Notes: generated by a model from the sequence alone, not told the origin. Shown: positions 3,773-37,038, numbered from the stretch's first letter. The stretch is 37,038 nt of DNA from a virus (IMGVR_UViG_3300045988_084091:1-37038), one strand, 5' to 3'. Made by a program: numbers and translations.

Positions 3773-4302
3773 ACAAATTCCGTTGCCTGCGCGCGGACGA
3801 GATCGAGTGCCGTGTGCAGCAGGTCAAGGATAACGGTCTTGTCCTCCTGCTCTACAAAGATGCGCGCTGCGACATGACCATCCTGGACGAGACGGTCGGC
3901 GCGATGAACTGGCAGCGTGAGCACCGGCGCGATAACGCCAACTGCGTCGTGTCTATCTGGGACAGCGAAAAAGGGCAGTGGATCAGCAAGGAGGACACCG
4001 GCACGGAATCCAACACGGAGGCGGAAAAGGGCCTTGCGTCCGACAGCTTCAAGCGAGCGTGCGTCAACTGGGGCATCGGCCGCGAGCTGTACACTGCACC
4101 GTTTATCTGGATACCGGCAGGGAACTACACTGCCAACGGCCGCAAGTGCTATGACAAATTCGCAGTCGAGAAGATCGAGTACGTGAAAAATGACGACGGC
4201 TCCGACCGTCACGAAATCCTGAATCTATCCATCCGAAACACGACCATGAACAAGCGCGTGTTTGTCCACATCGGCAGCACCGCAAAGAAAGGAAGTAAAT
4301 AA
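3769..4302 (+). CDS. Rad52/Sak-type single-strand annealing protein, 177 aa
   Basis: The motif GLASDSFKRACVNWGIGRELY matches the conserved Rad52/Rad22-family core as I recall it. Lies immediately upstream of SSB. Confidence 0.7.
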   Translation: MNKFRCLRADEIECRVQQVKDNGLVLLLYKDARCDMTILDETVGAMNWQREHRRDNANCVVSIWDSEKGQWISKEDTGTESNTEAEKGLASDSFKRACVNWGIGRELYTAPFIWIPAGNYTANGRKCYDKFAVEKIEYVKNDDGSDRHEILNLSIRNTTMNKRVFVHIGSTAKKGSK

Positions 4303-4303
4303 C

Positions 4304-4771
4304 ATGATTATTCGCACAAGAACCGGCGACTGCATCGTTGCCGGGAGACTTTCCCGTGACGCAGAGTTTTCCAACGTCGGCTCGAAAAACACGCCGCTGA
4401 CGAAGTTTAGCATTCCTGCCCGAGACACCGTGCAGCCGGACGGCAGCAAGCAGACCGAATGGATCAACTGTGAGGTGTGGTATGAGGCCGCCATGAATGC
4501 CGCGCAGCTCAAAAAGGGTGATTCTGTCATCGTATGTGGGCAGCTCTCCACGCGCAGCTATACCACCCGCGACGGGGAGGAACGCAGCGAGGAGCGCCTG
4601 CGTGCAGACGCCTTTGTCAAAGCGTCCGTGCCGGTCTCTTCTGCCAGCGTGGAGCAGCTTGCCTCCGCCTATCCCGGCGTCGTGCGCGGCGTCGGAGTTG
4701 TCGCGGACGACTTCACGAATGAGCCGAAGTTTGAGGAACTGCCGGAGGATGAATCCGACCTTCCGTTTTGA
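4304..4771 (+). CDS. ssb: Single-stranded DNA-binding protein, 155 aa
   Basis: OB-fold-like N-terminal region and the typical acidic C-terminal tip EDESDLPF. ATG at 4304 follows AAAGGAAG. Confidence 0.85.
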   Translation: MIIRTRTGDCIVAGRLSRDAEFSNVGSKNTPLTKFSIPARDTVQPDGSKQTEWINCEVWYEAAMNAAQLKKGDSVIVCGQLSTRSYTTRDGEERSEERLRADAFVKASVPVSSASVEQLASAYPGVVRGVGVVADDFTNEPKFEELPEDESDLPF

Positions 4772-4783
4772 TCGGAGGCCGCC

Positions 4784-5515
4784 ATGGCAGAAAAGCGAAT
4801 GTTCGCGCGCTCGCTCATCGACAGTGACGCGTTTCTGGAGATGCCGCTCTCCGCGCAGGCGCTGTATTTCCACCTCAACATGCGCGCGGATGACGACGGG
4901 TTCATCAACAACCCGAAGCGCATCACGGACTATGTCGGCGCGGCGGCTGACGATCTGAAGCTGCTCCTTGCAAAGCGCTTTATCATCGTCTTTGATTCCG
5001 GCGTCATTGTCATCCGGCACTGGCGCATGCACAACACGCTCAAAAGTGACCGATACCATCCGACGAACTATCAGGAAGAGTTTGCAACACTCTGCCTAGA
5101 GGAAAACAAGGCATACTCCGAGCGACCGCAGACGACACCTGCCGCAGAACCGGCCAGAGTGGAAAAGCCAGCAGCGCGCCCGGCGCAAAAAGCCGCCGCA
5201 AAGCCTCCGGAAAAGAAACCCTATGGAGAAATGCACAACGTCATGCTCGCGGATGACGAGCTGGAAAAGCTCCAGCGAGATTACCCGAACGACTACGAAA
5301 CATATGTCGAGCGCCTGTCCCTGTACATCACCAGCAAAGGCGCGCGGTACAAATCCCACTACGCCGTCATCCGGCAGTGGCTTGCAAAAGACGGCGTGAA
5401 GGCAGAGAACGAGAAGCGCGCGCCGGTCTCCGGTAAGGACGACCTGGACAAAGTGGAGCGAATGCTCGCTGCCATGAAGGGGGGTGCGCAGGATGCCTAC
5501 CATGTTAGCCCTTGA
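4784..5515 (+). CDS. Phage replisome organizer / DnaD-like replication initiation protein, 243 aa
   Basis: The N-terminus MFARSLIDSDAFLEMPLSAQALYFHLNMRADDDGFINNPKRI matches the replisome-organizer N-terminal domain pattern. It is followed by a Pro/Ala linker and a helical C-terminal domain. Confidence 0.75.
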   Translation: MAEKRMFARSLIDSDAFLEMPLSAQALYFHLNMRADDDGFINNPKRITDYVGAAADDLKLLLAKRFIIVFDSGVIVIRHWRMHNTLKSDRYHPTNYQEEFATLCLEENKAYSERPQTTPAAEPARVEKPAARPAQKAAAKPPEKKPYGEMHNVMLADDELEKLQRDYPNDYETYVERLSLYITSKGARYKSHYAVIRQWLAKDGVKAENEKRAPVSGKDDLDKVERMLAAMKGGAQDAYHVSP

Positions 5516-5981
5516 CCCCGGCAACCGGGAAACCGGCTGGTGCATCGTCGATACGATCACCCGCGCACCGGTGCAGGGGGGAAAGGACGAGAACACACTC
5601 GTCTCCGTCATTGTGACCTGCGGCGCGTTCACCGTTGCCGCGATTGAGATCATCGAATCTTACGGCATGGCGGTCGGGCGCGACGTGTTTGAGACGTGCG
5701 AGTGGATCGGACGCTATAAGCAGCTACTCGACGACCGCGGCGTACCGTACCACATCGTCACGCGCAAAGAGGAAAAGCTCAATATCTGCGGCAGCTCTCG
5801 CGCGAACGATACCACGATCCGCCACGCGCTGATTGACCGCTTCGCGTCGCACGACTTCCGCAGCGGCAAGGGCACGAAAGCAAATCCAGACTTTTTCTAC
5901 GGCTTCCGCGCCGATCAGTGGAGCGCGTATGCCGTTGCAACGACCGCCCTCGACAGGGAAGAAAAGGAGATACTTATATGA
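5493..5981 (+). CDS. RuvC-like Holliday junction resolvase, 162 aa
   Basis: The N-terminal LALDPGNRETGWCIV carries the catalytic Asp signature. The size and position after replication genes fit. GTG 5484 and ATG 5502 are alternative starts. Confidence 0.6.
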   Translation: MPTMLALDPGNRETGWCIVDTITRAPVQGGKDENTLVSVIVTCGAFTVAAIEIIESYGMAVGRDVFETCEWIGRYKQLLDDRGVPYHIVTRKEEKLNICGSSRANDTTIRHALIDRFASHDFRSGKGTKANPDFFYGFRADQWSAYAVATTALDREEKEILI

Positions 5982-14940: not shown

Positions 14941-15630
14941 TTACTTTCCGTCAACCATGCGCTGGCACACGATCATCGTGCGCAGCATGTCCATCGTCAC
15001 GTCAAGGTTGCCGTGCTCATCGCCCTGCAGCGCGCCGCGATCAATCAGCTTCTGCGTTTCTTCCTGCGCCCATGTGGGCAGTTCTGCCACGGTGTTATAT
15101 CTGGTTGCCATATCGTCGTCCTCCTCGACTGTAGTAGTGTTTTTCGGCGTCAGCATATCCTTAAACGCCGTCCACTGCGCCGGGTCATCCACCCACGGCA
15201 TAGGGCAGTGCTTGCCCGTCACGTCGTAGTGCCGCAGCACGTGGTCGGTGTCGATGCCATAGCGCTGCATAATGTCTTTTGCCAAGGCCGCAGCGTTTGC
15301 CACGGTCTCCGGTTTGATGTAGTAGCTGCCGTCGGCGCGCTTGCGGCTGCACATCTCGATGCCGATGCTGTTGCCGTTGCGGCACTCGGGGTGCCAGTAC
15401 GCCCGCGCGCCGCAGTGCCACGCCGTGTCGACCTCGCGCACGGACTGCATCGCGCCGTGCTCGTCCACAAAATAGTGAGCGCTTGCTTGCAGGCCACCCA
15501 CGCGGTGGTAGTAGTCGCAGTTGTTGCGCGCGGTGTCGCCGTTGTTGGCCGTGTAGTGCATCACAATGTACTGCACTGGCTGCGTGCGCCCGGCGCGGTA
15601 ATTGTCCGCGTTACAAGCAATGAATTCCAT
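14941..15630 (-). CDS. N-acetylmuramoyl-L-alanine amidase endolysin (Amidase_2/PGRP fold) with a C-terminal ~55-aa module, 229 aa
   Basis: YIVMHYTAN...SAHYFVD...TAWHCG...NSIGIEMC...LRHYDVTGKHCPMPW covers all zinc-ligand regions of the T7-lysozyme-type fold. ATG at 15630 overlaps the upstream stop and follows GGAGGAGG. Confidence 0.8.
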   Translation of the reverse strand: MEFIACNADNYRAGRTQPVQYIVMHYTANNGDTARNNCDYYHRVGGLQASAHYFVDEHGAMQSVREVDTAWHCGARAYWHPECRNGNSIGIEMCSRKRADGSYYIKPETVANAAALAKDIMQRYGIDTDHVLRHYDVTGKHCPMPWVDDPAQWTAFKDMLTPKNTTTVEEDDDMATRYNTVAELPTWAQEETQKLIDRGALQGDEHGNLDVTMDMLRTMIVCQRMVDGK

Positions 15631-16148
15631 CAGCTCTCCTCCTCCCATCCGTACACGCCCGGCGCGTAGACGTTTGCGTCTGCCGTGCAAATGTAGTGCT
15701 TGCCGTTGTAGCTGACTTTGTCGCCCCGGTGATACGCATCGTGCGCGCCGGACGGCTGTACCCACTCCGGCCATTCGTCCACGCTGACGGCTGCCCACAA
15801 TGCCGGGGTCGCGTCCGGGTTAAGGTCGCGCCAGCTCGCGCCGCCGGTGTAAGCGATAGATGCAGGCTCGGTCATCTCCACGCCGATGTGCGTGCCGTTG
15901 GCGGCACCGCCGCAGTGCCAGCCGCGCATTTCCCACGGCAGCGTCTGATACACCGTGCCGCCCGCGTCCAGAAACGCGTGCACGCACACGCTCTGCCCGC
16001 CCGGCTGGTACTGGTCAAAGTATCGCGCGAGCACGGCGGCGCTCGGCTGCGGTGTGCCGATGCTGTGCAGCATGATGCCCTGCGGGTACAGCGGCGCGCC
16101 GATCTGATAACATTTGTTGTTTGTGGCAAATGCCTCGATGATATTCAT
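15630..16148 (-). CDS. Amidase_2 N-terminal half fused to a CBM5/12-like carbohydrate-binding module, 172 aa
   Basis: GIMLHSIG...CVHAFLD...RGWHCGGAANGTHIGVEM matches the first half of the fold only. The C-terminal His/Cys region is replaced by WVQPSGAHDAYHRGDKVSYNGKHYICTADANVYAPGVYGW, which is chitin-binding-type-3-like. Confidence 0.7.
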   Translation of the reverse strand: MNIIEAFATNNKCYQIGAPLYPQGIMLHSIGTPQPSAAVLARYFDQYQPGGQSVCVHAFLDAGGTVYQTLPWEMRGWHCGGAANGTHIGVEMTEPASIAYTGGASWRDLNPDATPALWAAVSVDEWPEWVQPSGAHDAYHRGDKVSYNGKHYICTADANVYAPGVYGWEEES

Positions 16149-16162
16149 GTGTTGTTACCTCC

Positions 16163-16927
16163 TCACGTCTGTTGCAGCCTATATCGCCCGCTTTGCAGCG
16201 CAGCCTTGCCTCCGTCCTCCTGCTGCACCCACGCGCCATCCACTTTTTTGTACACCTTCGCTGCCTGCGCATACGCGCCGTCCCGCTTGACGTAGAGTGG
16301 GGCCGAGTCCGTTTCAATGTCCTCGTAGGTGACCTCAAGGTATACTTGGGTAATCCTATTCTGGAAATCATCATTTTTCGAGCTATTTTTGTTTCCGTTC
16401 AAAAATATATTGGCTCGAAAAAACGTTGTGCCCAATGAAAAATCGTTAACGACCAATTCGGTTGGGATGATTTCCTGCAAGGCACTATTGGTATAAGTGA
16501 ATTCAGACGCGTTCCATTCACGCGCATAATCGGCATAAGACGACGTAAGCGTGCCACTTAAATAAGAACTGGCGGGTGATACCGCGCTAGCATCAATCGG
16601 CGCGCCATCAAATAAAATGCCCGGCCCCTCAAGCAAAATATATCCCGAAGTTCTGCGTGTGTCGGCGCTGGCACTAGAGGTCGTTTTTGCGATAAAGTGC
16701 ATCTTAACGCGAAGTATCTTAACTGGTGTGTTCTTTTCCCACTTAAATACAACAGTGGCATTGTCCGTTCTGGACTTTGATGAGATCGCTTGAAAAATGT
16801 AACTTGCGTCGTTGTCGGCTGCTTCTTCGTTTATCAGCGAATAATAGCTGTCTCCGGCCGATTTACTTAAAGTGTATGCCGTAGTGCTTGGATAGTCACC
16901 AGTCGGCCTGAGAATTACTGTAGGCAC
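16163..16927 (-). CDS. Hypothetical tail/receptor-binding-like protein, 254 aa (GTG start), low-GC
   Basis: GTG at 16927 lies 5 nt after GAGGTGA. The N-terminal two thirds are markedly AT-richer than the rest of the genome. Last gene of the fibre cluster, before lysis. Confidence 0.65.
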   Translation of the reverse strand: MPTVILRPTGDYPSTTAYTLSKSAGDSYYSLINEEAADNDASYIFQAISSKSRTDNATVVFKWEKNTPVKILRVKMHFIAKTTSSASADTRRTSGYILLEGPGILFDGAPIDASAVSPASSYLSGTLTSSYADYAREWNASEFTYTNSALQEIIPTELVVNDFSLGTTFFRANIFLNGNKNSSKNDDFQNRITQVYLEVTYEDIETDSAPLYVKRDGAYAQAAKVYKKVDGAWVQQEDGGKAALQSGRYRLQQT

Positions 16928-17604
16928 GCAATCACCTCGTTCTTGAGCACGTCCTTTTGCAGCAGCCGACTGTCGACAGTTCCCGGTGTCTTTGCGGACT
17001 GCTTCGTACACAGCTGCCGGATGTAATCGCTTCTGTCCGCATAGCTGATCTGACAGGCAAAGACATAGACCCCGTTGATCCGGCGGTTCATCGACCCGAG
17101 AACTTTTTCATTGCCAACAAGGATATCGTTCCCGTCTACTCGAACACCATAGAGATACTTTGACATAATCCCTTTGATCTTGTCGAGCATATACGCCGTT
17201 CCCACGTCAATCGAATCCGGGATGATAACCGCGAGGCTGAGATCTTCCGGGCCGCTCACGATTGTGCCGCCGATGTAGTTCATGTCATACACACGCACGC
17301 CGAGTTTTTCGCAAAGCGCCCGATCAATCGGATCGCTGCCGTGCCAAACAAATACTTCATCAGCCGTCGGGATCCACAAGGACGGAGTTTTAGCAATAAC
17401 TGCGGCCTCAACTCGGCTCTCGATGTTATCCATGGTCGTCTCATGGATCTCTATACCGCAGTGCTTGAGAAGGTACTCGCGCTTATCCTCGAAATAATCA
17501 TTCAGGTCGGCATACCCGAAATCCGTTAAGTCGAGTACCGCGGGGCCGCCGGATAGCCGCAAAGAGAGATATTCTTTTTCCGCCCGTATTGCCGCTTCAA
17601 TCAT
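16915..17604 (-). CDS. Biotin/lipoate A/B protein ligase-fold protein (LplA/LipB-like), 229 aa
   Basis: IGGTIVSGPEDLSLAVI parallels LipB RGGxVTYHGPGQL and LplA SGGGAVFHDLGN. DGNDILVGNEKVLGSMNRRINGVYVFACQIS parallels LplA GRNDLVV..RKVSGSAYR....HHGTLL, including the catalytic-position Lys. ATG at 17604 follows GGGGTGAG. Confidence 0.55.
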   Translation of the reverse strand: MIEAAIRAEKEYLSLRLSGGPAVLDLTDFGYADLNDYFEDKREYLLKHCGIEIHETTMDNIESRVEAAVIAKTPSLWIPTADEVFVWHGSDPIDRALCEKLGVRVYDMNYIGGTIVSGPEDLSLAVIIPDSIDVGTAYMLDKIKGIMSKYLYGVRVDGNDILVGNEKVLGSMNRRINGVYVFACQISYADRSDYIRQLCTKQSAKTPGTVDSRLLQKDVLKNEVIACLQ

Positions 17605-17608
17605 GCTC

Positions 17609-17824
17609 TCACCCCATATCCAGATAGATATCCCCGTCCGCGCCCAGACTTGCATCCGGCGCGCCAGACCCGGTATACACCGTCGCGAACGTCACTGTGC
17701 CCGTCACGGGGGAGCCGGTCTTGTCGTGCGCCGTCACGCCTGCAAGTAGCTTATCCGCCGCCACGCTGTCGCCGGTCAGATCAATGAGCACGCGCGCATT
17801 GTATACGATTTTATTGACTGCCAT
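17609..17824 (-). CDS. Short fibre-module protein, 71 aa; N-terminal paralog of 17829-18401
   Basis: MAVNKIVYNARVLIDLTGDSVAADKLLAGVTAHDKTGSPVTGT aligns residue-for-residue with the N-terminus of the upstream gene. Confidence 0.7.
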   Translation of the reverse strand: MAVNKIVYNARVLIDLTGDSVAADKLLAGVTAHDKTGSPVTGTVTFATVYTGSGAPDASLGADGDIYLDMG

Positions 17825-17828
17825 CCCG

Positions 17829-18401
17829 TCACCCGATCGTTACCGTCGTGCCGCCCGCGTCGTTCGCGGCTTCGACGTAGGGGATCGCTGCCACTGTCGC
17901 GCTTGACAAGTAGTCATACCCACTGTCCGGCTGCACGACCTGCTGCGTCGTCCCCGGTGTTGCGGTCTTGCTCTGCGCTTTGATCGCCGCGCCGGAATAA
18001 CTGCCCTCCACGCCGAGGATCGTCACGCCGGACTTGATATTGCCCGCAATGAGCTTCGCCTGCTCGGTCGAACTGATGCCCACCTTGCCACCGCCGTTGT
18101 GATACCCAGCCGGGATCGTGTATTCGCCCGTTTTCGTGGCGATCGTGCCGGACACAGCGCCCCGGTTTGCCATCGTGCCAGTGCCCTTCGCGCCCTTGCG
18201 GTAATAGGTCTTGCCAAGCAACACGTCGCCATCCGCTGCATTGGCGTCACTCGTGTCGGCGTCATAGGTGCAAGTGCCCGTGATCTCCTCACCGTCCTTG
18301 CCATGCGCCGTAATGCCGGTCAGCAGCTTGTCCGCCACGACCGTGTCCTCGGTCAGGTCGATCAACACGTTGCCGCCATAAATAATTTTACTGTATGCCA
18401 T
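17829..18401 (-). CDS. Tail fibre/receptor-binding-like protein, 190 aa
   Basis: N-terminus MAYSKIIYGGNVLIDLTEDTVVADKLLTGITAHGKDGEEITGT, with a Gly/Thr-rich beta-type body. ATG follows GGAGG. Confidence 0.7.
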   Translation of the reverse strand: MAYSKIIYGGNVLIDLTEDTVVADKLLTGITAHGKDGEEITGTCTYDADTSDANAADGDVLLGKTYYRKGAKGTGTMANRGAVSGTIATKTGEYTIPAGYHNGGGKVGISSTEQAKLIAGNIKSGVTILGVEGSYSGAAIKAQSKTATPGTTQQVVQPDSGYDYLSSATVAAIPYVEAANDAGGTTVTIG

Positions 18402-18403
18402 AG

Positions 18404-18682
18404 TCAGCCTCCAACGATAAAAGTTACGCCGCCAGCGGCGTTTGGGATCTCCCGCGTCGGGATCATGTCGATGCGCACATCGTCGCGCATCGTCTTGCTG
18501 CGCGTTGGCAGCCTCTGCGCCGTGATCAGCGGCGTCACGTCATATGCGCCGTCGTAGTAGTCGGCATTGCCCTTTTCCACAACGACCGCCTCGCCCAAAG
18601 CCACGGCGAGCTTTTCCGGTTCTTTCACAGCGGCAGAGACCTTTCCGACCTCGTGCAGCCGCACCGTCATGATATTATCCAT
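18404..18682 (-). CDS. Hypothetical virion protein, 92 aa
   Basis: ATG follows GAGGAGGAG. Tightly packed inside the fibre cluster. Confidence 0.65.
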   Translation of the reverse strand: MDNIMTVRLHEVGKVSAAVKEPEKLAVALGEAVVVEKGNADYYDGAYDVTPLITAQRLPTRSKTMRDDVRIDMIPTREIPNAAGGVTFIVGG

Positions 18683-18697: not shown

Positions 18698-19045
18698 TTA
18701 TGCCGTCCGCTTCCACACGTAAACCGCAAGATACGGCGGCATGTTATTATGCGCTCCGTCGCCGCCAGCGCTGGACGTGTAGCTGCCAATCGCATAATAC
18801 GTGCTGTCAGACGGGCCATCCGGGTAGTTGCCGGGCGCGGAGTGGTCAGCAGCTCCAGCATTAGGGAAGTACACCGCGTGGTTGTGGCTCGGCATCTCGC
18901 TTGTGGTAAGCGTGTGTGTCGCCTCTCCGCCGGTTGTGCCTGCTTTGTAGGTCGTGCCAGCAGCCAACAGAAATCTGTCCTTGATCTGTACCCACGTACC
19001 GCCGCCCGGTGTCCCACTGCCACAACGCTCCGCGCCCATCCGCAA
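18698..19045 (-). CDS. Tail-collar/baseplate-type fibre protein; start codon unresolved
   Basis: GGTWVQIKDRFLLAAG...GGEATHTLTTSEMPSHNH is the phage tail-collar-type motif. This frame offers only TTG 19045 or ATG 19039, and neither has a nearby SD. The strong AGGGAGG+ATG at 19058 is in another frame. Confidence 0.6.
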   Translation of the reverse strand: MRMGAERCGSGTPGGGTWVQIKDRFLLAAGTTYKAGTTGGEATHTLTTSEMPSHNHAVYFPNAGAADHSAPGNYPDGPSDSTYYAIGSYTSSAGGDGAHNNMPPYLAVYVWKRTA

Positions 19046-19728: not shown

Positions 19729-20955
19729 TCAGATGGAATTCCAGAGCGTCTGCACCTCGTCCGCAGTCAGCTCCGTCAGGTCGATGATGCCCGCAAGCAC
19801 GTCCCACTTGTAGCTGCCGCTGCCAGCGTCCACGCACACGACGTTTGTGCCCGCGCCGTAGCTGTGTCCTGCACCCTCGACGAATGCCGCCGTCGTCGTG
19901 AAGGCATCGCTGACGTTGTACACCCAGCCCTTGTTTCCAGCCGCGGCCGTCGGCAGGGACGCGAACGCAATAGACCCCTTCGGCGTATACACACCAGTGA
20001 GCGCGCTGTTGATTGCGGATTTAACTTGCGCGGCCGTCTGCAAGCCGGAGACCTTGTTGTCCACATACGTTTTCGTGGTCGCGTCATTGCCATCGGTCGG
20101 AGCGCCGACAGAAAGTCTCGCATACGTTCCCGCCGCTTCTCCGGCAAGCGAGGCGCTGCTCCCGTCGTCGCAGGTAAGCGTGACCCCGTGCGAAAGGTCA
20201 GACGTATAAATGCCAAGATTCGTCGCGGAGAACGTGCCCGTGCGCAGGCTCCCGTCAACCACGAGGTTTCCGCCAACTGTGCCGCCCGTTTTATTCAACT
20301 TTTTGTCTAGCTCTGCTTTGATCGCCTTGTTCTGCACAGGGTTCGTGGACGTGCTGGAGACGGAGCTATCCACGGTCACGCCACCGGACGCGACCTTGCT
20401 GTCCACATAAGCCTTTGTGGCCGCGTCGTTGTCACCGGTCGGTGTGCCGACAGCGAACCGTGAATAGTGCGATTTTCCGTCGCTACTCAAGCTGGTAATT
20501 CTAGCTGCGTTATCTCCGGAACAGTCAATGAAGACAGACGCTTCCTCTGCGTCGTTGTTTAGCCCAAGCGACGGGGCAAGCAGAGCAAGTCCGGAATAAA
20601 TATGCCCCTCAGCGTCTATGTCGCTTTTTACTTCAAGGCTATTACCGGCGTTAATGAGGCCGTCCACTTTCAAGCTACCGGTGATCGTTCCGCCGCTTTT
20701 GTCCAGCTTTTCATCCATCGCCGCCTTGACGGCCTTGTTCTGCACGGGGTTGGCAGACCCAGCGTCCAGCGCTGCATCCACGGTGGTCTTGGTCGCACCC
20801 GCCTCGATGCCGTCCAGCTTCGTCTTGTCCGTCGCCGACATCAGGCCCGCCGCGCTCGTCGTCGCGTTTGTCTTATCAGCCTTGTTGTTGAGCGCCGTTT
20901 TCACCAACTGCATCAGCTTGTTCAGGGCGTTCTGCCCTGCGTATTTCGTTGCCAT
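19729..20955 (-). CDS. Tail fibre protein with an internal duplication, 408 aa
   Basis: ATG at 20955 follows GGGGGAG. NPVQNKAVKAAMDEKLDKSGGTITGSLKVDG and NPVQNKAIKAELDKKLNKTGGTVGGNLVVDG are two copies of a fibre repeat module. Confidence 0.8.
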   Translation of the reverse strand: MATKYAGQNALNKLMQLVKTALNNKADKTNATTSAAGLMSATDKTKLDGIEAGATKTTVDAALDAGSANPVQNKAVKAAMDEKLDKSGGTITGSLKVDGLINAGNSLEVKSDIDAEGHIYSGLALLAPSLGLNNDAEEASVFIDCSGDNAARITSLSSDGKSHYSRFAVGTPTGDNDAATKAYVDSKVASGGVTVDSSVSSTSTNPVQNKAIKAELDKKLNKTGGTVGGNLVVDGSLRTGTFSATNLGIYTSDLSHGVTLTCDDGSSASLAGEAAGTYARLSVGAPTDGNDATTKTYVDNKVSGLQTAAQVKSAINSALTGVYTPKGSIAFASLPTAAAGNKGWVYNVSDAFTTTAAFVEGAGHSYGAGTNVVCVDAGSGSYKWDVLAGIIDLTELTADEVQTLWNSI

Positions 20956-20965
20956 AGTTCTCCCC

Positions 20966-21298
20966 CTAAGCGTTATTCCACATGTCCACGACCTCAAGGA
21001 TCGTCAGCTCTTCATCCTCATCTACCGCGCCGACGTTTTCCGGCGTCAACTGTACATTTCCGGCGCCATCCGGCAGCACCCGGTTGACGCTCTGCACTGT
21101 GCCTCCACCGCTTCCGCCGCCGGTCGGTGTGCGCCAGCCCGTGTCATAGTCGCTGTCGGACAGCTTTGTCAGCGCCTGACCGGCCGTTCCGCCGGGTGGC
21201 ACACCGACACCGGGCGGCCCCGGCGGCCCTTGCAGCAGGATACCGCCGAGGCGTACCGTCAGCGAGAACCGGCCGTTTGCCGGTACGACCGCGGGCAT
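20966..21298 (-). CDS. Short collagen-like fibre protein, 110 aa
   Basis: GPPGPPGVGVPPGG tract and Gly-rich linkers. The C-terminus (ELTILEVVDMWNNA) resembles the C-terminus of the next fibre (LTADEVQTLWNSI). Confidence 0.65.
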   Translation of the reverse strand: MPAVVPANGRFSLTVRLGGILLQGPPGPPGVGVPPGGTAGQALTKLSDSDYDTGWRTPTGGGSGGGTVQSVNRVLPDGAGNVQLTPENVGAVDEDEELTILEVVDMWNNA

Positions 21299-21636: not shown

Positions 21637-22626
21637 TCAGCAGAAGTACCAGCCGGAAAGCATGATACTGTCATTCGCGTTTGCCACCACGCCAGACGGA
21701 AAACGAATCGTCAGGTAACCGTCCGGTACCAACATCGCCGGAGCCGTCGTATACTCGGCATACCCCTGCGTCGACACGTACTGCACGCGCGCCGCGCAGC
21801 TCACCATCGCGAGCGGTGGTTTACTCAGGCCGGACAGCGTCAGCGATACGCCGTCCGTGATTTCGGCCGACGACAGACCACGCAGCTCCACCTGAAACAG
21901 CACCACGCCCAGCGCCCTCGCGTATACGAATTTGCAGCTCTGCACCGCCACTGCGCTTTCTGCGATGCCAGACGATGCCGTAACCGGAAGCGACTCAACA
22001 AGTGCTTTATCCCCGACCTTCTCGTTTGTCACAGCTCCGGCCGCGATCTTTTCCGTCGTAACTGCCCTGTCGGCCAGCGCGCTCGTCACAATCGCGCGTT
22101 CCCCGATATTTCTGCTTCCAATCGTGTAGTATGCGATCTTGTCCCCGGTCACGGCGTTGTCTACGATGTTGTGCCCTTCGACCGCGTCGTAGTCGATCTT
22201 GCCCCTCGTCACAGCCCCACTTGCGATCTTCGACTCCTCGACGGCCGCGTCTTTCAAGCGGTACGTATCTACAGCGCCCAGCTTGATTGCATTGGTGTCG
22301 ACCGCGCCGTCTGCAATCTTTGCTGCTGTGACAGCACCGTCCGCGATGCCGCCCTGCGACACACCCGCGATCTGGCTCTGCACGTTCTCGATCGCATCCT
22401 GCACGTTATCAGCGTTGACGGCCGTTGTCGGTGCAAAGCCGATGTTCTTTGCGGCGGCGTTCTCGCCGAGCGCAGCGACCAGATCGTTGAGCGCCTTTTT
22501 CAGCAGGTTTCCTGCAAGGTCAAACTTTGCTTTCAGAGACGCGGCGGACAGGCCGCCAACGTCGTTCGGCTCGTCATCCAGTTTGGAGATGATGTTCATG
22601 TCTTCATTGCACGTCGGAAGTGCCAT
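21637..22626 (-). CDS. Tail fibre/spike-like protein with degenerate AVTxxKI repeats, 329 aa
   Basis: About 10 copies of [DG]-x-AVT-x-x-KI-A-x-G (for example DGAVTAAKIADGAVDTNAIKLGAVDTYRLKDAAVEESKIASGAVTRGKI). ATG follows AGGAGGG. Confidence 0.7.
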   Translation of the reverse strand: MALPTCNEDMNIISKLDDEPNDVGGLSAASLKAKFDLAGNLLKKALNDLVAALGENAAAKNIGFAPTTAVNADNVQDAIENVQSQIAGVSQGGIADGAVTAAKIADGAVDTNAIKLGAVDTYRLKDAAVEESKIASGAVTRGKIDYDAVEGHNIVDNAVTGDKIAYYTIGSRNIGERAIVTSALADRAVTTEKIAAGAVTNEKVGDKALVESLPVTASSGIAESAVAVQSCKFVYARALGVVLFQVELRGLSSAEITDGVSLTLSGLSKPPLAMVSCAARVQYVSTQGYAEYTTAPAMLVPDGYLTIRFPSGVVANANDSIMLSGWYFC

Positions 22627-24903: not shown

Positions 24904-25956
24904 TCAGGCGGTAGCCGTCATAATGCCGGAATCCAGCGCGCCGTTCTTGCTGGCGTAAGCCTTGACTTCCGTGCCCGCGGCAATGCCGTTCGGCTTCGAG
25001 CTGGCGCTGTAGGTCTGCGCCGTGGAGGAAGTCTTCGGGTTGCTGCCGTCGGTGGTGTACTTGATGGTCTCACCTTCACCGGCAGTCAGCGTCAGCGTGC
25101 CGCCGGAAACAGACATCGTCGGGGTCGTGCTGCCCGCAGTCGCGTGCACGCCGATGGCGTATGCCTTCTTGTCCAGCACGAAGCTGTCGAACATCACGCG
25201 GTACTCCGCCACATCGCCGTCGATGCCGAGCGGGTTCTTCTGGATGCGCATGGTCTGGTTCTTCACCGGGTCGACGCTCGCGCCCTTGCGGAAGATCACG
25301 AAGTTGACACCAGCGGGCAGATAGCTGTCCGGGATGGCGTACACGTCGTTGCCATCGAGCTTGCCCAGAGAGCCGTTTGCGACGGCGTCCTTGCCCAGCA
25401 CGTCAATGCCGACGATGTAGTCCGACAGCTTGCACTTGGCGAACAGCGTGTGGCCGATGAAGATCGCGCGATTGTCGGTCGGCACGAGATGGTTGGACAT
25501 CTCCGCGCCCATGTTGACAATGGCGTCGATCGCGGTCTTGCCGGTCAGCGCGGTCGCGTTGACGGTCACAACACCGGCGCCGCCGACCCACTTCTGCAGG
25601 CGGTACTTGTCGATGCTCGGGGTGACCTTGCCGTCCCACGTCGCCTTCATGCGCGCGTTGCACTGCTTGACGTTAAACTGTTCGGCAGCGTTGCCCGCGT
25701 CGATCGAGAACGTGCCGCCCTTGTCCTGCGTCATGCGCATGGTCTGAACGGTGTCACCCAGCTCTTTGATCGTGCCGAATCGGCTGGAGCCGCTGCGGGT
25801 GTAGTCGCCGAAGTCGCCCTCGTCGGAGCTGTACACATTGATCGCGTTCACGCCGACAAAGTCGTAATCCTTACCGGCGAATGCGTCGGTCACGCTCTTC
25901 TGGTGGAAACGCTCGTCGAGCTTGGTGCTGTATTTGTTCGCAACATTGATTGCCAT
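24904..25956 (-). CDS. Major capsid protein with a C-terminal Ig/Fn3-associated-like module, 350 aa
   Basis: Sits after the scaffold gene and has the expected size. The C-terminal ~75 aa (TLTLTAGEGETIKYTTDGSNPKTSSTAQTYS...VKAYASKNGALDSGI) match the xIxYTTDGSxP pattern of Fn3-associated/chitobiase-C-type domains. Confidence 0.8.
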   Translation of the reverse strand: MAINVANKYSTKLDERFHQKSVTDAFAGKDYDFVGVNAINVYSSDEGDFGDYTRSGSSRFGTIKELGDTVQTMRMTQDKGGTFSIDAGNAAEQFNVKQCNARMKATWDGKVTPSIDKYRLQKWVGGAGVVTVNATALTGKTAIDAIVNMGAEMSNHLVPTDNRAIFIGHTLFAKCKLSDYIVGIDVLGKDAVANGSLGKLDGNDVYAIPDSYLPAGVNFVIFRKGASVDPVKNQTMRIQKNPLGIDGDVAEYRVMFDSFVLDKKAYAIGVHATAGSTTPTMSVSGGTLTLTAGEGETIKYTTDGSNPKTSSTAQTYSASSKPNGIAAGTEVKAYASKNGALDSGIMTATA

Positions 25957-27031: not shown

Positions 27032-28741
27032 TTATTCGGTCGTCCCGGTCTGCATGACCTTGCGCTGCAGGTCGCCGAAGCCGCCGCCGCCGCGAATGGG
27101 CGTCTTCTGGCCGAGATCGACCAGCGCGCCGGTCTCCGGCGTGCCGCCTGTGTTCTGCTCCTCCGGCTGCATCATCTGCTGCTGTGCCGCCTGCTTACGA
27201 GAGGCGATCAGCTCCTGCCGCTTCGGGATGTAGCCGTCCGGGATGCGCTCAAGGTATTCCTCGATCGTGATCTTGTCCTGCATCAGCAGGTTATCCAGTG
27301 TCTGCACCGACGCCATCTCCGACCAGTACGAGCTTGCGCCGACGTCCAGCTTCAGTGCCATCGGCATATCGTTCAGAATGCCGTAGTCGAACAGCACGGT
27401 TTCCAGCTCCTCCGGGTCTTTCCCGGCAAATGCGAGAATGTCCGCGCCCACGTCCGGCATAGACACCTGCACTTTGCGCTTCCCGTAGTACGCCGCCATG
27501 AAGTCAAGATAGATTCGCCCAAGATCCTCGATGGACTTGTAGAGGTTCTGCTTCGTGATCTCCGACGGGATGCTGGCTGCGCGCTGCAGGGCAATAATGG
27601 CCGACGTGTTGTCCGGCCGCGTCTCGCCAAGCGCTGCGCTCGTCGCGCCGAGAAACTGCCGCGTATAGTCCACGCTCGTCTGGATAAACTGCGCGATCTG
27701 CGGGCTGATCTGTGCCGGGTCGATGATCTTTGCCACGCCGGACACGTCGCCGCCGTTGACGCCGATCGCAGCGCCGACAGCGTTGTTCCACTTCGGGATG
27801 CGCGTCTTGTCGTATACCGTGCGCGGGAACGCGCTCGTCATCAGCGAGATCATGGACATTGCAAACAGCTTGTTTACAAAAATTTGGTTCGGGATCAGTC
27901 CGGTCACGAGCGCCTGCCCGTGATAGCTGTCTGGAATGTAGTCCCAGTTGATCCACGTCACCGGGTAGAGCCGCAGCCCCATGTCCCACGGCTCGCGCAG
28001 CATGACGCGCCCGGAGACTTCGCATGCCCACACCGTTCCGGTCTTGCGTTCCTTCCACATCCGCAGCAGCACCGTGCTGCGCTCTGAGCTGTTTTTGTAG
28101 CTGTCAGTGTTGTGGTTCTCGTTATCCGGCTGAATGTCTCCCCAGCGCGGATTTCCGGCCTCCTGCGCCGCTCTGCGCAGCTCTTTCGTCATTTCTCGCC
28201 GTTCAATGAGAATGTAGGGCTGCTTCTGCGGGTCACGGCACGCTGTGTTGCCGAAGCCGACGCGCATATTGTCCACGATCTCCGTGCGGATGCCGCCGCG
28301 CAGTCCGAATCCGGCGTCAACCGTGTCGTCCCAAAACGTAAACAGGCAGCTATCACCGTCCACAGCGGCGTTTCGCATATACTCGCGCACGCGGTTCGGC
28401 ACGCGGTTGAATTCAAACAGCCGGTCAAATTCCTTGTTGACGATCTCCGCGACACGTTCCACGTCCTCCGGTGTGCGCTCGCACGCAAGCGGAGTGGCCT
28501 GCATTTTGATGTTGTCGGTCGTGATGTTCGCAACCGAAAACAAAACGACCTGTTTCAGGAAGTTGTATACCGGCGTCGGCAGGCCCTTCGCGTCCACGCC
28601 CTCCCATTGCTTGCCAATGAAGAAGTTCTCGTTGGCGCGCACCGTCTCGTCGAGGTTGACAGCGGTGTTGTAGCCGAGCATTTTCTGGTACTCTGCCTGT
28701 ACCTGCTCCGGCGTGATCTTCTTGCCAAACTCGTCAGGCAT
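27032..28741 (-). CDS. Portal protein, 569 aa
   Basis: Size and position just downstream of TerL fit a portal. N-terminal ANENFFIGKQWEG and central LGATSAALGETRPDNTSAIIALQ segments are portal-like. Confidence 0.8.
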   Translation of the reverse strand: MPDEFGKKITPEQVQAEYQKMLGYNTAVNLDETVRANENFFIGKQWEGVDAKGLPTPVYNFLKQVVLFSVANITTDNIKMQATPLACERTPEDVERVAEIVNKEFDRLFEFNRVPNRVREYMRNAAVDGDSCLFTFWDDTVDAGFGLRGGIRTEIVDNMRVGFGNTACRDPQKQPYILIERREMTKELRRAAQEAGNPRWGDIQPDNENHNTDSYKNSSERSTVLLRMWKERKTGTVWACEVSGRVMLREPWDMGLRLYPVTWINWDYIPDSYHGQALVTGLIPNQIFVNKLFAMSMISLMTSAFPRTVYDKTRIPKWNNAVGAAIGVNGGDVSGVAKIIDPAQISPQIAQFIQTSVDYTRQFLGATSAALGETRPDNTSAIIALQRAASIPSEITKQNLYKSIEDLGRIYLDFMAAYYGKRKVQVSMPDVGADILAFAGKDPEELETVLFDYGILNDMPMALKLDVGASSYWSEMASVQTLDNLLMQDKITIEEYLERIPDGYIPKRQELIASRKQAAQQQMMQPEEQNTGGTPETGALVDLGQKTPIRGGGGFGDLQRKVMQTGTTE

Positions 28742-29087: not shown

Positions 29088-30497
29088 CTAATAGCTGATA
29101 TATCCGGCAGACGGTGCGTCTCCGGTCATGAATTCCTCGTAGCCCTCCTGCGCGTCCTCGTCCTCGTAGATGATCTCTGACGGGTTCGCATCTCTTGCGT
29201 CCGCGCGCATTGTTCTCGATACGCAGTAGTAGCGCACGGAATCGACCGTGTGTGTAATCTCGTGCGGCTCTTTCGCACAGTCGTTCGGGTTGCGCTCGTC
29301 CGCCTGAATGTCCTCTAGGTCTCCGATCGTCCGTTCGCAGTTCTGGAAAAGCACGAGCCCCGGCTTTCCGTCCGGCATATTTGCGAGCGCTTCTTTCACT
29401 TGCAGGAAACCCTGCACGCGGTTGTTGCTCGCCCGCACGATGGGCACGCCGCACTGCATGAATACCTCTGCCATCGTCTTGCCGGTGTCCTTCTGGCGTG
29501 ACCAGATATCCGGCGGGGCAAAGGTAATCTCGATGTGCTCGTCCGGCATTGTCATGTCGAGGATCTGCTTTGCTGCATCCTGTACGATCAGCCCAGGCTG
29601 CACCAGCTCGCGGTACATATACGATCGTCCGTTTTCGTCCACCGCGTACCAGCCGACGGCGAGCATATCCAGACCGTAGTCGAGTGCCCTGTATCGCTTC
29701 CAGTGCTTTGGGATCTGGAACGGCTTGCAGGTGTGCGTCGCCTTGCTGAACTCCGGGAAATATGTGCCGCACAGCGCGTCCCAGTCGCCGTAGCGGTGCG
29801 CCTTGCGGATGTTCTCCGGCAATTGAGATAGCGCCTGAAGATAGCCCGGAGAGGATTCAAGCAGGTCTTTGTTGTCCTCGACCGTTGCGAAAATGAAGCT
29901 GTAGTCGTCCGGGTTCTCGTTCTCCTCCGGATTGTCGGAGTCTGTCTTGAAATTTCGGTCGATAAACAGGCGCTTGACCCATCTGTGCCCGACGCCGCCG
30001 GGGTTGCACGTCAGGTAAAAGCGCTTCGGGATCTCGTTGACGCCGCGCAGGCAGCCGCCGAGAAAGCGGAATTCGCGCTCTGTAAACTGCGTTGCCTCGT
30101 CCATGAAGATCCAGTCATATTCCTGGCCTTGGTATTCGCTCTCGGACGTGATGCCGCTCCAGTGGCCGAAATGGATGGTCGAGCCGTTCTGAAAGTACAG
30201 CGTGTGCAGTGTGCCGTTGTAGCTTGTCAGCTCCTGCGGCACCATCTTCAGAATCGGTTCGATGTGGTTCGACTGCAGCTCCGGGTATGTCTTTCGCACG
30301 ATGAGGATGCGGATGCCCGGCCATGTAAACGCGCCGCCTACTGCCTTGATGCGCACAGCGTGCGTCTTGCCGCCGCCTCGCGCGCCGCCGTAGGCTGTGT
30401 ACATCGTTCGGCTCTGGTAGAACAGAAGCTGCTTCTCGTTCGCGTGCCCCGGATCCCATGTGAAATTTGTCTGCGTGCTTCGCTTCTGCTTCGGCAT
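29088..30497 (-). CDS. terL: Terminase large subunit, 469 aa
   Basis: Walker A YGGARGGGKTH, Walker B DWIFMDEAT, and a C-terminal nuclease-type region. ATG follows ACGGAGGA. Confidence 0.9.
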   Translation of the reverse strand: MPKQKRSTQTNFTWDPGHANEKQLLFYQSRTMYTAYGGARGGGKTHAVRIKAVGGAFTWPGIRILIVRKTYPELQSNHIEPILKMVPQELTSYNGTLHTLYFQNGSTIHFGHWSGITSESEYQGQEYDWIFMDEATQFTEREFRFLGGCLRGVNEIPKRFYLTCNPGGVGHRWVKRLFIDRNFKTDSDNPEENENPDDYSFIFATVEDNKDLLESSPGYLQALSQLPENIRKAHRYGDWDALCGTYFPEFSKATHTCKPFQIPKHWKRYRALDYGLDMLAVGWYAVDENGRSYMYRELVQPGLIVQDAAKQILDMTMPDEHIEITFAPPDIWSRQKDTGKTMAEVFMQCGVPIVRASNNRVQGFLQVKEALANMPDGKPGLVLFQNCERTIGDLEDIQADERNPNDCAKEPHEITHTVDSVRYYCVSRTMRADARDANPSEIIYEDEDAQEGYEEFMTGDAPSAGYISY

Positions 30498-30587
30498 GGC
30501 ATCCTCCGTAAATGCAGAAACGGAGCCAACTGCATTCCGCAGCCAGCTCCGTTCAGCTCTTATGCCCGGCCGTTTCCGGGCACGTCG

Positions 30588-36915: not shown

Positions 36916-37022
36916 CAGACGAGGAATGGAGGATGTACTTACGGCGCGAGATCGAGCGGCTGCTGATCCTAGCGGACACGCGGACGATGGAGATGACGCT
37001 GGAATTTCTGCGCGCAGCGTAA
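36912..37022 (+). CDS. Small ORF, 36 aa, translationally coupled (ATGA) to the Cro-like gene
   Basis: MTDEEWRMYLRREIERLLILADTRTMEMTLEFLRAA. The ORF spans the repeat boundary, which shows the two window ends are continuous. Confidence 0.55.
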   Translation: MTDEEWRMYLRREIERLLILADTRTMEMTLEFLRAA

Positions 37023-37038
37023 AGAAAAACAAAAAAGC
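36920..37038. repeat. Right copy of the 119-bp terminal direct repeat
   Basis: Base-for-base identical to 1-119. It runs to the window edge, so the true repeat length cannot be bounded from the sequence. Confidence 0.95.

Follow-up and report, generated by a model that had tools for sequence, protein, structure and literature searches.

Gene A of a 37,038-nucleotide viral DNA (IMGVR_UViG_3300045988_084091:1-37038; this whole stretch is referred to as the window) encodes a protein that, by profile comparison and predicted structure, is a member of the BPL/LplA/LipB catalytic-domain superfamily with the LplA/LipB catalytic fold. A lies in the tail-fibre part of the genome, after two small genes, C and B, and before a fourth, D, and belongs to a three-part cassette that is kept at 27-95% identity: an upstream fibre subunit ending in a conserved tail (here B), A itself, and D. 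The conserved unit is the tail, then A, then D. We propose, with a probability of roughly 0.4, that A serves in fibre maturation as an enzyme acylating a lysine of the fibre-tip proteins, Lys184 of D being the best candidate judged from the alignments and models. Considered on the same basis, A is a phage-specific variant of a known enzyme scaffold, with a putative role in the tail-fibre tip.

The fold had been assigned in a sequence-only reading of the window from two motif blocks aligned by eye, and the peptides quoted in it are present in A (IGGTIVSGPEDLSLAVI at residues 111-127 and NDILVGNEKVLGSMNRRINGVYVFACQIS at residues 159-187). Comparisons of profiles and of structures bear this assignment out. 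The Pfam family LplA-B_cat (PF21948) matches A with an E value of 1.5e-4, although the 22.2 bits that A scores fall short of the gathering score of 27; the same family matches 24 of 30 close homologs and, at E ≤ 0.01, 75 of 102 diverse homologs (best 1.8e-13). Besides PF21948, no Pfam family matches A at E < 0.01, and no PHROG does at E ≤ 0.001. The AlphaFold2 (AF2) model, built on 30 homologs, has a mean predicted local distance difference test score (pLDDT) of 94.5, and in a Foldseek comparison of this model with the PDB the first 34 structures in rank are without exception LplA, LipB or lipoyltransferase, with E values of 4e-12 to 2e-7 and template modeling (TM) scores of ∼0.55-0.60 over ∼200 columns; biotin ligases come next. 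The identity to the solved LplA/LipB structures in these alignments is 12-18%. The decisive homology link was provided by a protein found by chance, the bona fide archaeal LplA of L020, which matches PF21948 with an E value of 5e-32 and carries a Lip_prot_lig_C domain. In hhalign, the A family profile aligns with this protein at 95.8% probability (E = 6.7e-9, 27% identity over 128 columns), GGTIVSGP being paired with GGTILDGP and GNDILVGNEKVLG with GNDILVGGRKISG. It should be noted that hhalign comparisons of the profile with the single E. coli LplA and LipB sequences were not significant, LplA being in register and LipB out of register; with a larger hidden Markov model (HMM) of the A family, E. 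coli LplA also aligned in register, weakly. PDB sequence searches with A, the A profile, the B profile, C, and the D profile gave nothing meaningful.

A search of 1.84 billion cluster representatives with the A profile gave 459 matches at E ≤ 1e-3 and 220 at E ≤ 1e-10, mostly proteins of 215-262 aa that align over nearly the full profile length. Mean column identity in an alignment of 102 family members is only 28%. Among 124 diverse homologs (representatives at 50% identity), which are the basis of the conservation figures for A, the LplA-type motif residues are kept at Asp121 (98%), Asn159 (97%), Asp160 (98%), Lys167 (98%), Gly113 (93%), and Gly170 (90%), and other conserved residues are Lys205 (95%), Tyr12 and Gly30 (94% each), and Lys41 (88%). 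The Gly-rich loop aligns with Gly75-Gly76 of E. coli LplA as well as with the archaeal loop, and Lys167, the residue that had been placed by eye at the catalytic position, is aligned with Lys133 of E. coli LplA in three independent alignments; the persistence of the Lys and Gly-Gly motifs in homologs (93-98%) is as the earlier assignment would have it. Near-invariant catalytic motifs in a family of such low overall identity suggest that A binds a ligand and is probably active. Judged by its motifs, the A family is a large, uncharacterized clade (459 clusters at 50% identity) that keeps the catalytic residues. None of the 102 diverse members matches PHROG, and A itself matches neither NCBIfam nor PADLOC, the latter result giving no sign of a defence system. 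Among 50,697 GenBank phage records nothing was found by megablast with the region or by tblastn with A or D, and the literature search turned up no relevant account of a lipoate ligase connected with phage tail fibres or receptor binding. The nearest neighbours of A in BFVD, both from gut virome assemblies, are an uncharacterized 229-aa protein and a 187-aa protein labeled automatically as "Lipoate-protein ligase A".

The genes that accompany A were examined in 52 loci, 33 of them distinct, which came from IMG/VR, from GTDB genomes and metagenomes, and from encoding contigs. Twenty of the distinct loci combine a full-length A with sufficient sequence downstream, and in 19 of them the next gene is D-like, L031 being the sole exception; 18 of the 19 were recognized by HMM and overlap the end of A by 10-19 nt, and the one read by eye (L048) has a start that also overlaps. 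Upstream, the motif Y-x-G-x3-P-x4-G-x-[DN]-G-D-x-[YFW]-x(2-8), followed by the stop codon, is present in 17 of the 20 loci as the extreme C terminus of otherwise unrelated proteins of 71 to ∼600 aa, and in 16 of the 17 distinct loci with both a full-length A and the tail, A starts no more than 11 nt after, or up to 5 nt inside, the tail-bearing gene (the gap is 117 nt in L042). In the window, the ATG start of A, preceded by GGGGTGAG, is 4 nt past the stop of B and encodes the same start Met as in close homologs, and the GTG start of D, with a GAGGTGA Shine-Dalgarno sequence, overlaps the last 13 nt of A. The same neighbours are kept in L008, where the arrangement is different: an amidase gene precedes the block and a connector gene follows D. 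Because synteny is kept down to 27% identity, the view that A belongs functionally to the fibre cluster and is not a stray metabolic gene is supported by these comparisons, and the way in which A is strictly paired with D and the tail, with translational coupling, suggests that the job of A concerns these proteins. D and the upstream C-terminal tail, both of which escaped the sequence-only reading, are the partners that co-occur with A.

A also has an N-terminal extension of 50 residues, predicted to form a helix-loop-helix, that is family-specific and is not covered by the Pfam and LplA alignments; its conserved residues are Tyr12, Gly30, and Lys41. Neither D nor the tail motif was found in 8 of 9 distinct loci in which the first ∼45 family-model positions or more are lacking, some of these being short contigs with little room downstream; two further partial A loci are apparently broken assemblies. 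The shorter and more distant relatives in L029, L041, and L049-L054, in whose matches the first ∼45 positions or more are missing, have no D and no tail motif found adjacent, several of them being on short contigs, and some follow proteins with C termini such as ...IVPKGCGDTYKSAEGW..., by eye putative leucine-rich-repeat surface proteins. From their sequences, these relatives may constitute a separate subfamily, perhaps of the type of the 187-aa BFVD protein.

D has a conserved N terminus (M-A/P-T-x-I-L-R-P-x-x-D ... S-S-G-S-S-G-Y-x-L-I-N-E ... A-D-D-D-S-T-Y-I) and a variable middle part, and its most conserved stretch is K-x-x-S-K-N-D-D-F-Q-x-R-I/V-T-Q-x-Y. In the AF2 model, built from nine sequences (pLDDT 73.7), the protein is all-beta, and the KNSSKNDD loop joins the longest strands, residues 169-179 and 188-203. 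Lys180 and Lys184 in this loop are invariant in the nine sequences, and all 14 distinct D sequences have a lysine within the 9 residues that precede the R(I/V)TQxY strand. Foldseek gave weak, generic beta-sandwich matches with TM scores of 0.2-0.3 (CBM4/22, legume lectins, viral jelly rolls, and Bdellovibrio Bd1399); since only such generic matches were obtained, no specific family is claimed for D, and the claim made from the model is that of a beta-sandwich, adhesin-like protein. The C-terminal part is variable, with hYhKxxGxW units in the window and its close relatives, Flg_new repeats (Pfam) in L008, and repeats that by eye look similar to Flg_new in L014 and L016. No lipoyl, biotinyl, or GcvH-type domain was found in D with Pfam. 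Receptor-binding proteins are usually built in this way, from a conserved N-terminal part and a variable C-terminal one, and D, from its alignment and model, looks like a receptor-binding module.

In the proposed mechanism, A would be an active single-domain enzyme that descends, with much divergence, from an LplA-type lipoate/octanoate-protein ligase and was recruited to the fibre-tip cassette, in which the upstream fibre subunit, of whatever length (here the 71-aa B), would end in the conserved tail. During morphogenesis, Lys167 would serve as the catalytic residue, and A would draw on the chemistry of its fold, by way of an acyl-adenylate or an acyl-enzyme, to transfer an acyl group to a lysine of the phage's own fibre-tip proteins, of which the hairpin-loop Lys184 of D is the best acceptor candidate; acylation would bring D to maturity or attach it to the upstream subunit by that subunit's tail. 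It should be recognized that we infer the activity of A, its phage-protein substrate, the modified lysine, and the acyl group alike from the motifs, gene order, and models. A number of observations weigh against the proposal. The SKND loop of D is unlike known acceptor motifs, and loop lysines are common, so that the presence of one in D is weak evidence. No lipoyl, biotinyl, or GcvH-like acceptor domain was found by a Pfam scan of the neighbouring phage proteins, and neither the accessory domain (Lip_prot_lig_C) nor a separate LplB was found in A or the 16 neighbouring proteins scanned. Cys199, which is 32 residues past Lys167 just after a helix, is invariant in close homologs but is present in 81% of the family as a whole, being replaced by Ser in 8 members and Gly in 6. 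Finally, the position of A, directly after a fibre gene with a conserved C terminus, is the classical place of non-enzymatic tail-fibre assembly chaperones.

The type of reaction that A may catalyze has to be considered in relation to the versatility of its scaffold, which supports ATP-dependent ligases, octanoyl-acyl carrier protein transferases, and amidotransferases, the activity being unreadable from sequence (PMC7253636). The LplA of Thermoplasma acidophilum requires LplB for formation of lipoyl-AMP but carries out lipoyl transfer alone, and for the Mycoplasma hyopneumoniae ligase (Mhp-Lpl) the N-terminal domain by itself is reported to have full activity (PMC7186572). A lacks the accessory domain and has a mostly conserved Cys 32 residues past the Lys, so that ligase and transferase chemistry are both open to it on the sequence evidence; the replacement of Cys199 by Ser or Gly in some members makes a thioester mechanism common to the whole family doubtful.

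A shares with the LplA catalytic domain (E. coli, T. acidophilum, and the fused archaeal LplA of L020) the same fold and the three core motifs in the same order. It differs from LplA in having no C-terminal accessory domain and no adjacent LplB, in its private 50-aa helical N-terminal extension, in being encoded inside a phage fibre cassette with no lipoyl-domain protein nearby, and in scoring, for the window protein, below the Pfam gathering threshold. In other respects A resembles the octanoyltransferases LipB and LipM and the amidotransferases LipL/LIPT1, which are single domains of ∼210-280 aa with no adenylation accessory domain and a conserved Lys, and the spacing of Lys167 and Cys199 is close to that in E. 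coli LipB, where Cys169 is 34 residues past Lys135; however, the nearest sequence relatives of A are LplA-type, and its direct profile alignment with E. coli LipB is not significant. Dedicated paralogs beside private partners have precedents. In the SirTM operon, the LplA paralog LplA2 is found beside its own acceptor, GcvH-L. Dedicated ligases for non-canonical lipoate-binding proteins exist also in sulfur oxidizers, in which the sLpl(AB) ligases and LbpA are reported likewise to represent a divergent ligase paralog coupled to one neighbouring protein and not to central metabolism (PMC6067878). The acceptors in both systems are of recognizable GcvH/lipoyl type, whereas D is predicted to be a beta-sandwich, adhesin-like protein.

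A broader form of the proposal is that the LplA-derived A covalently modifies the phage's own receptor-binding apparatus in either of two ways, by acylation of the conserved hairpin-loop lysine of D (with octanoyl, lipoyl, or another carboxylate) or by isopeptide joining of the upstream tail to that lysine; resting on the same alignments and models, this is somewhat doubtful. In the bolder version, A would activate a carboxylate of the conserved Gly/Asp-rich upstream tail for formation of an isopeptide bond with the hairpin-loop lysine, and a split fibre, consisting of the anchor piece B and the tip D, would thereby be ligated into one unit. Oscillospiraceae phage NatCom_27610 (PV036438.1, L055; Candidatus Heliusvirales) provides an analogy. 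At 3983-5564 this phage encodes adjacent proteins of 194 and 331 aa, both of which have the N-terminal module that B shares with C; the 194-aa protein is C-like and is upstream of the 331-aa protein, and the holin and endolysin follow directly. Neither A nor D is present in its fibre-to-lysis region, A is unmatched in the phage collection that holds the record, and the same place is filled by the single 331-aa protein, made up of the module and a distal domain. By this analogy B and D together would fill the place of one fibre subunit, which suggests that they may form a split subunit.

The most serious alternative to enzymatic maturation is that A has kept the LplA scaffold but not its catalysis and acts in tail-fibre assembly as a factor or chaperone, or else as a minor structural adaptor; it would bind the upstream tail, the N-terminal domain of D, or both, and help in their folding or joining with no covalent modification. 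The genes for lambda Tfa, Mu gpU, and T4 gp38 are directly downstream of a fibre gene with a conserved C terminus, and A, like these and P2 gpG, directly follows such a gene in an exchangeable fibre-tip cassette. The strict three-part synteny with overlapping frames, the co-occurrence of the family-specific N-terminal extension with D and the tail, and the lack of an accessory domain in A and of a recognizable acceptor domain nearby would also be expected of such a factor. However, the best-conserved residues of A are those of the LplA ligand-binding and catalytic motifs (GG, ND, and Lys167, 93-98%), which a pure scaffold is expected to lose; A has no sequence or fold relationship to Tfa, gpU, gpG, or gp38, its significant Foldseek matches (E ≤ 1e-5) being only ligases of the LplA scaffold; and it shows no similarity to known tail-fibre assembly families in Pfam or PHROG at the thresholds given above. 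A purely structural role is on balance unlikely.

Morons are commonly found between the fibre and lysis genes, and A might instead be an auxiliary metabolic gene, a stripped-down lipoate/octanoate ligase or transferase carried in this cargo slot that acts during infection or lysogeny and lipoylates a host 2-oxoacid dehydrogenase or GcvH. The homology to bona fide LplA, the retention of the catalytic Lys, and the BFVD label of the 187-aa viral protein are consistent with this, but A overlaps the start of one structural-type gene by 13 nt and begins 4 nt after another, and it keeps the same neighbours at 27% identity and in the rearranged neighbourhood of L008. The identity of only 12-18% to solved LplA/LipB structures, the private N-terminal extension, the absence of PHROG matches among the 102 diverse members, and that of an NCBIfam match for A also argue against a metabolic function, which we regard as improbable.

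The sequence-only reading had proposed a different acceptor, a lysine in a module common to the N termini of B and C. The module itself stands: residues 1-46 of B are 61% identical to those of C (BLASTP, E = 2e-17). C matches phrog_13589 (E = 6e-54, profile positions 737-937 of 1042), and its middle part resembles annotated tail fibre or tail proteins of Geobacillus phage phiOH2 and Dulem virus 36; the possibility that the module is a repeat unit inside C was discarded when its similarity to the rest of C proved no better than that of shuffled sequences (local alignment, p ∼0.12). B-type proteins of 71-75 aa form 163 clusters. In an alignment of B with 120 homologs among the matches listed (121 sequences), Lys25, the A-D-K lysine that had been described as invariant, is Lys in only 93 (77%), Ala in 22, Asn in 4, and Thr in 2, and in the 331-aa protein of NatCom_27610 the module reads "...DTVTPQTLLLGNRAHGADG..." (TPQTLL), with no Lys. 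The C-terminal tail of B is far better conserved than the N-terminal module, Gly54, Pro56, Gly61, Gly64, and Tyr67 being invariant in the 121 sequences and Asp65 being present in 120. With regard to the co-occurrence of A, B, and C in related phages, the block encoding the 92-, 190-, 71-, and 229-aa proteins is kept in close relatives and recurs in L003, L008, and L010, but the module is missing from most loci carrying A, including those in which A is 27-68% identical and the upstream gene has no module (L005, L007, L012, L013, L014, and L016). The earlier suggestion that A lipoylates or biotinylates the A-D-K lysine, which had in its favor that B and C adjoin A and share the module and that Lys25 is present in 77% of the aligned B sequences, is therefore extremely improbable, since that residue is not Lys in 23% of the aligned B sequences, the module occurs with no such Lys in a phage lacking A and is absent upstream of A in the six loci just named, neither B nor C has a Pfam match (Biotin_lipoyl included) at E ≤ 1 or an NCBIfam match, and the module has 46 aa as compared with ∼80 aa for a lipoyl domain. 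From its distribution we infer that the module behaves like a common anchor, which would dock different distal parts onto the same virion site. NatCom_27610 constitutes a useful natural control for module function.

What emerges is an A clade that is firmly built into an exchangeable fibre-tip cassette found in gut and rumen phages. To our knowledge, the characterized enzymes that share the lipoate/biotin ligase scaffold all function in central metabolism or act on a small number of dedicated GcvH-like carriers; if the proposal of fibre maturation by A is true, A would be the first enzyme of the LplA scaffold known to act on a virion protein and would represent a new enzyme-catalyzed step in tail-fibre assembly. 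An active A would imply an enzyme-catalyzed covalent maturation of phage host-recognition proteins, which has so far not been looked for; this would bear on the swapping and assembly of receptor-binding modules and on the engineering of phage host range, and could supply a new pair of small ligase and acceptor for protein labeling.

The features of the fibre region and the structural genes that precede it are listed in the table. Every gene in the fibre part of the window is on the minus strand, A, B, and C being where they had previously been placed, and the reading order is terminase, portal, head, fibre genes, the 92-aa ORF (open reading frame), C, B, A, D, and lysis genes. The tail-fibre setting recognized in the sequence-only reading is confirmed by PHROG/Pfam matches for three of the genes upstream of C.

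Table. Positions of genes and protein features in the window, in reading order of the minus strand; features within a protein follow its gene
Feature	Coordinates	Strand	Remarks
Terminase (large-subunit gene)	29088-30497	(-)	
Portal	27032-28741	(-)	
Major head protein	24904-25956	(-)	
Fibre-type gene	21637-22626	(-)	PHROG/Pfam matches
Fibre-type gene	19729-20997	(-)	
Fibre-type gene, 213 aa	19073-19714	(-)	PHROG/Pfam matches
Gp10_C-like ORF	18698-19045	(-)	PHROG/Pfam matches
92-aa ORF (E), upstream of C	18404-18682	(-)	phrog_31538 match
Gene C, 190 aa, fibre-type	17829-18401	(-)	phrog_13589
C, N-terminal module	18264-18401	(-)	
Gene B, 71 aa, N-terminal module and C-terminal tail	17609-17824	(-)	
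B residues 1-46, N-terminal module common to C	17687-17824	(-)	BLASTP
B residues 48-71, TVYTGSGAPDASLGADGDIYLDMG, C-terminal tail motif	17612-17683	(-)	
Gene A, 229 aa, predicted single-domain LplA-type catalytic-domain protein	16915-17604	(-)	
A residues 1-50, predicted helix-loop-helix N-terminal extension, family-specific	17455-17604	(-)	helices 2-17 and 34-48 in model
A residues 112-121, GGTIVSGPED, Gly-rich loop motif of LplA/LipB	17242-17271	(-)	
A residues 159-170, NDILVGNEKVLG, ND motif and catalytic-position Lys167	17095-17130	(-)	
Gene D, 254 aa	16163-16927	(-)	GTG start
D residues 180-187, KNSSKNDD, predicted hairpin loop with Lys184	16367-16390	(-)	followed by FQNRITQVY
Two Amidase_2 genes and holin	after D		lysis genes

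With respect to the host, close relatives are present on contigs of metagenome-assembled genomes (MAGs) labeled Collinsella aerofaciens and Bacteroidaceae bacterium and a distant one on an Oscillospiraceae MAG contig; relatives are also found in human-gut and other metagenome assemblies. A protein 95% identical to A (P0001) is encoded on 79 contigs of up to 388 kb, which suggests that these are prophages. The lysis genes of the window are Phage_holin_1 and Amidase_2, a combination that fits a Gram-positive host.

Positions 1-119 and 36920-37038, at the two ends of the window, are an identical 119-nt direct repeat, which marks the sequence as a complete assembly of 36,919 bp, circular or terminally redundant; it probably represents a whole, circular phage assembly. 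About 40 nt upstream of the terminase large-subunit gene, a full-length match to the Rfam gut-2 RNA (RF02990) is present at 30539-30586 (-), with 48.6 bits against a gathering score of 39.8; the match implies no function. At the other end of the window, a tandem repeat of a 24-nt unit in ∼27 copies (1584-2231) is covered by a plus-strand ORF (1552-2619) that encodes 8-residue repeats, A-W-G-N-S-S-V-V / A-L-E-N-S-Y-V-V, followed by a Cys-rich C-terminal domain.

The Amidase_2 ORFs form a tandem pair at 15630-16148 (-) and 14941-15798 (-). In the first, the part of the amidase profile that is present is limited to the N-terminal two thirds, and a CBM_5_12-like stretch is also found. L003 and other relatives encode a single amidase of 303 aa with matches to parts of both ORFs; by this comparison the pair looks like a scar left in the lysis cassette by recombination or duplication. 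Sequence comparison shows in a similar way that the fibre genes are a mosaic. L003 and L010 encode a single protein of ∼216 aa composed of the first 89 residues of the 213-aa window protein and a Gp10_C-like domain; in the window these two parts are in separate ORFs, and the 213-aa protein has a different C-terminal fibre domain. The C termini of the 92-aa protein and C are alike (IPxxExxNxAGGxTxxIGG), both proteins match phrog_31538, and the final residue of the 92-aa protein, C, and B is Gly in each case.

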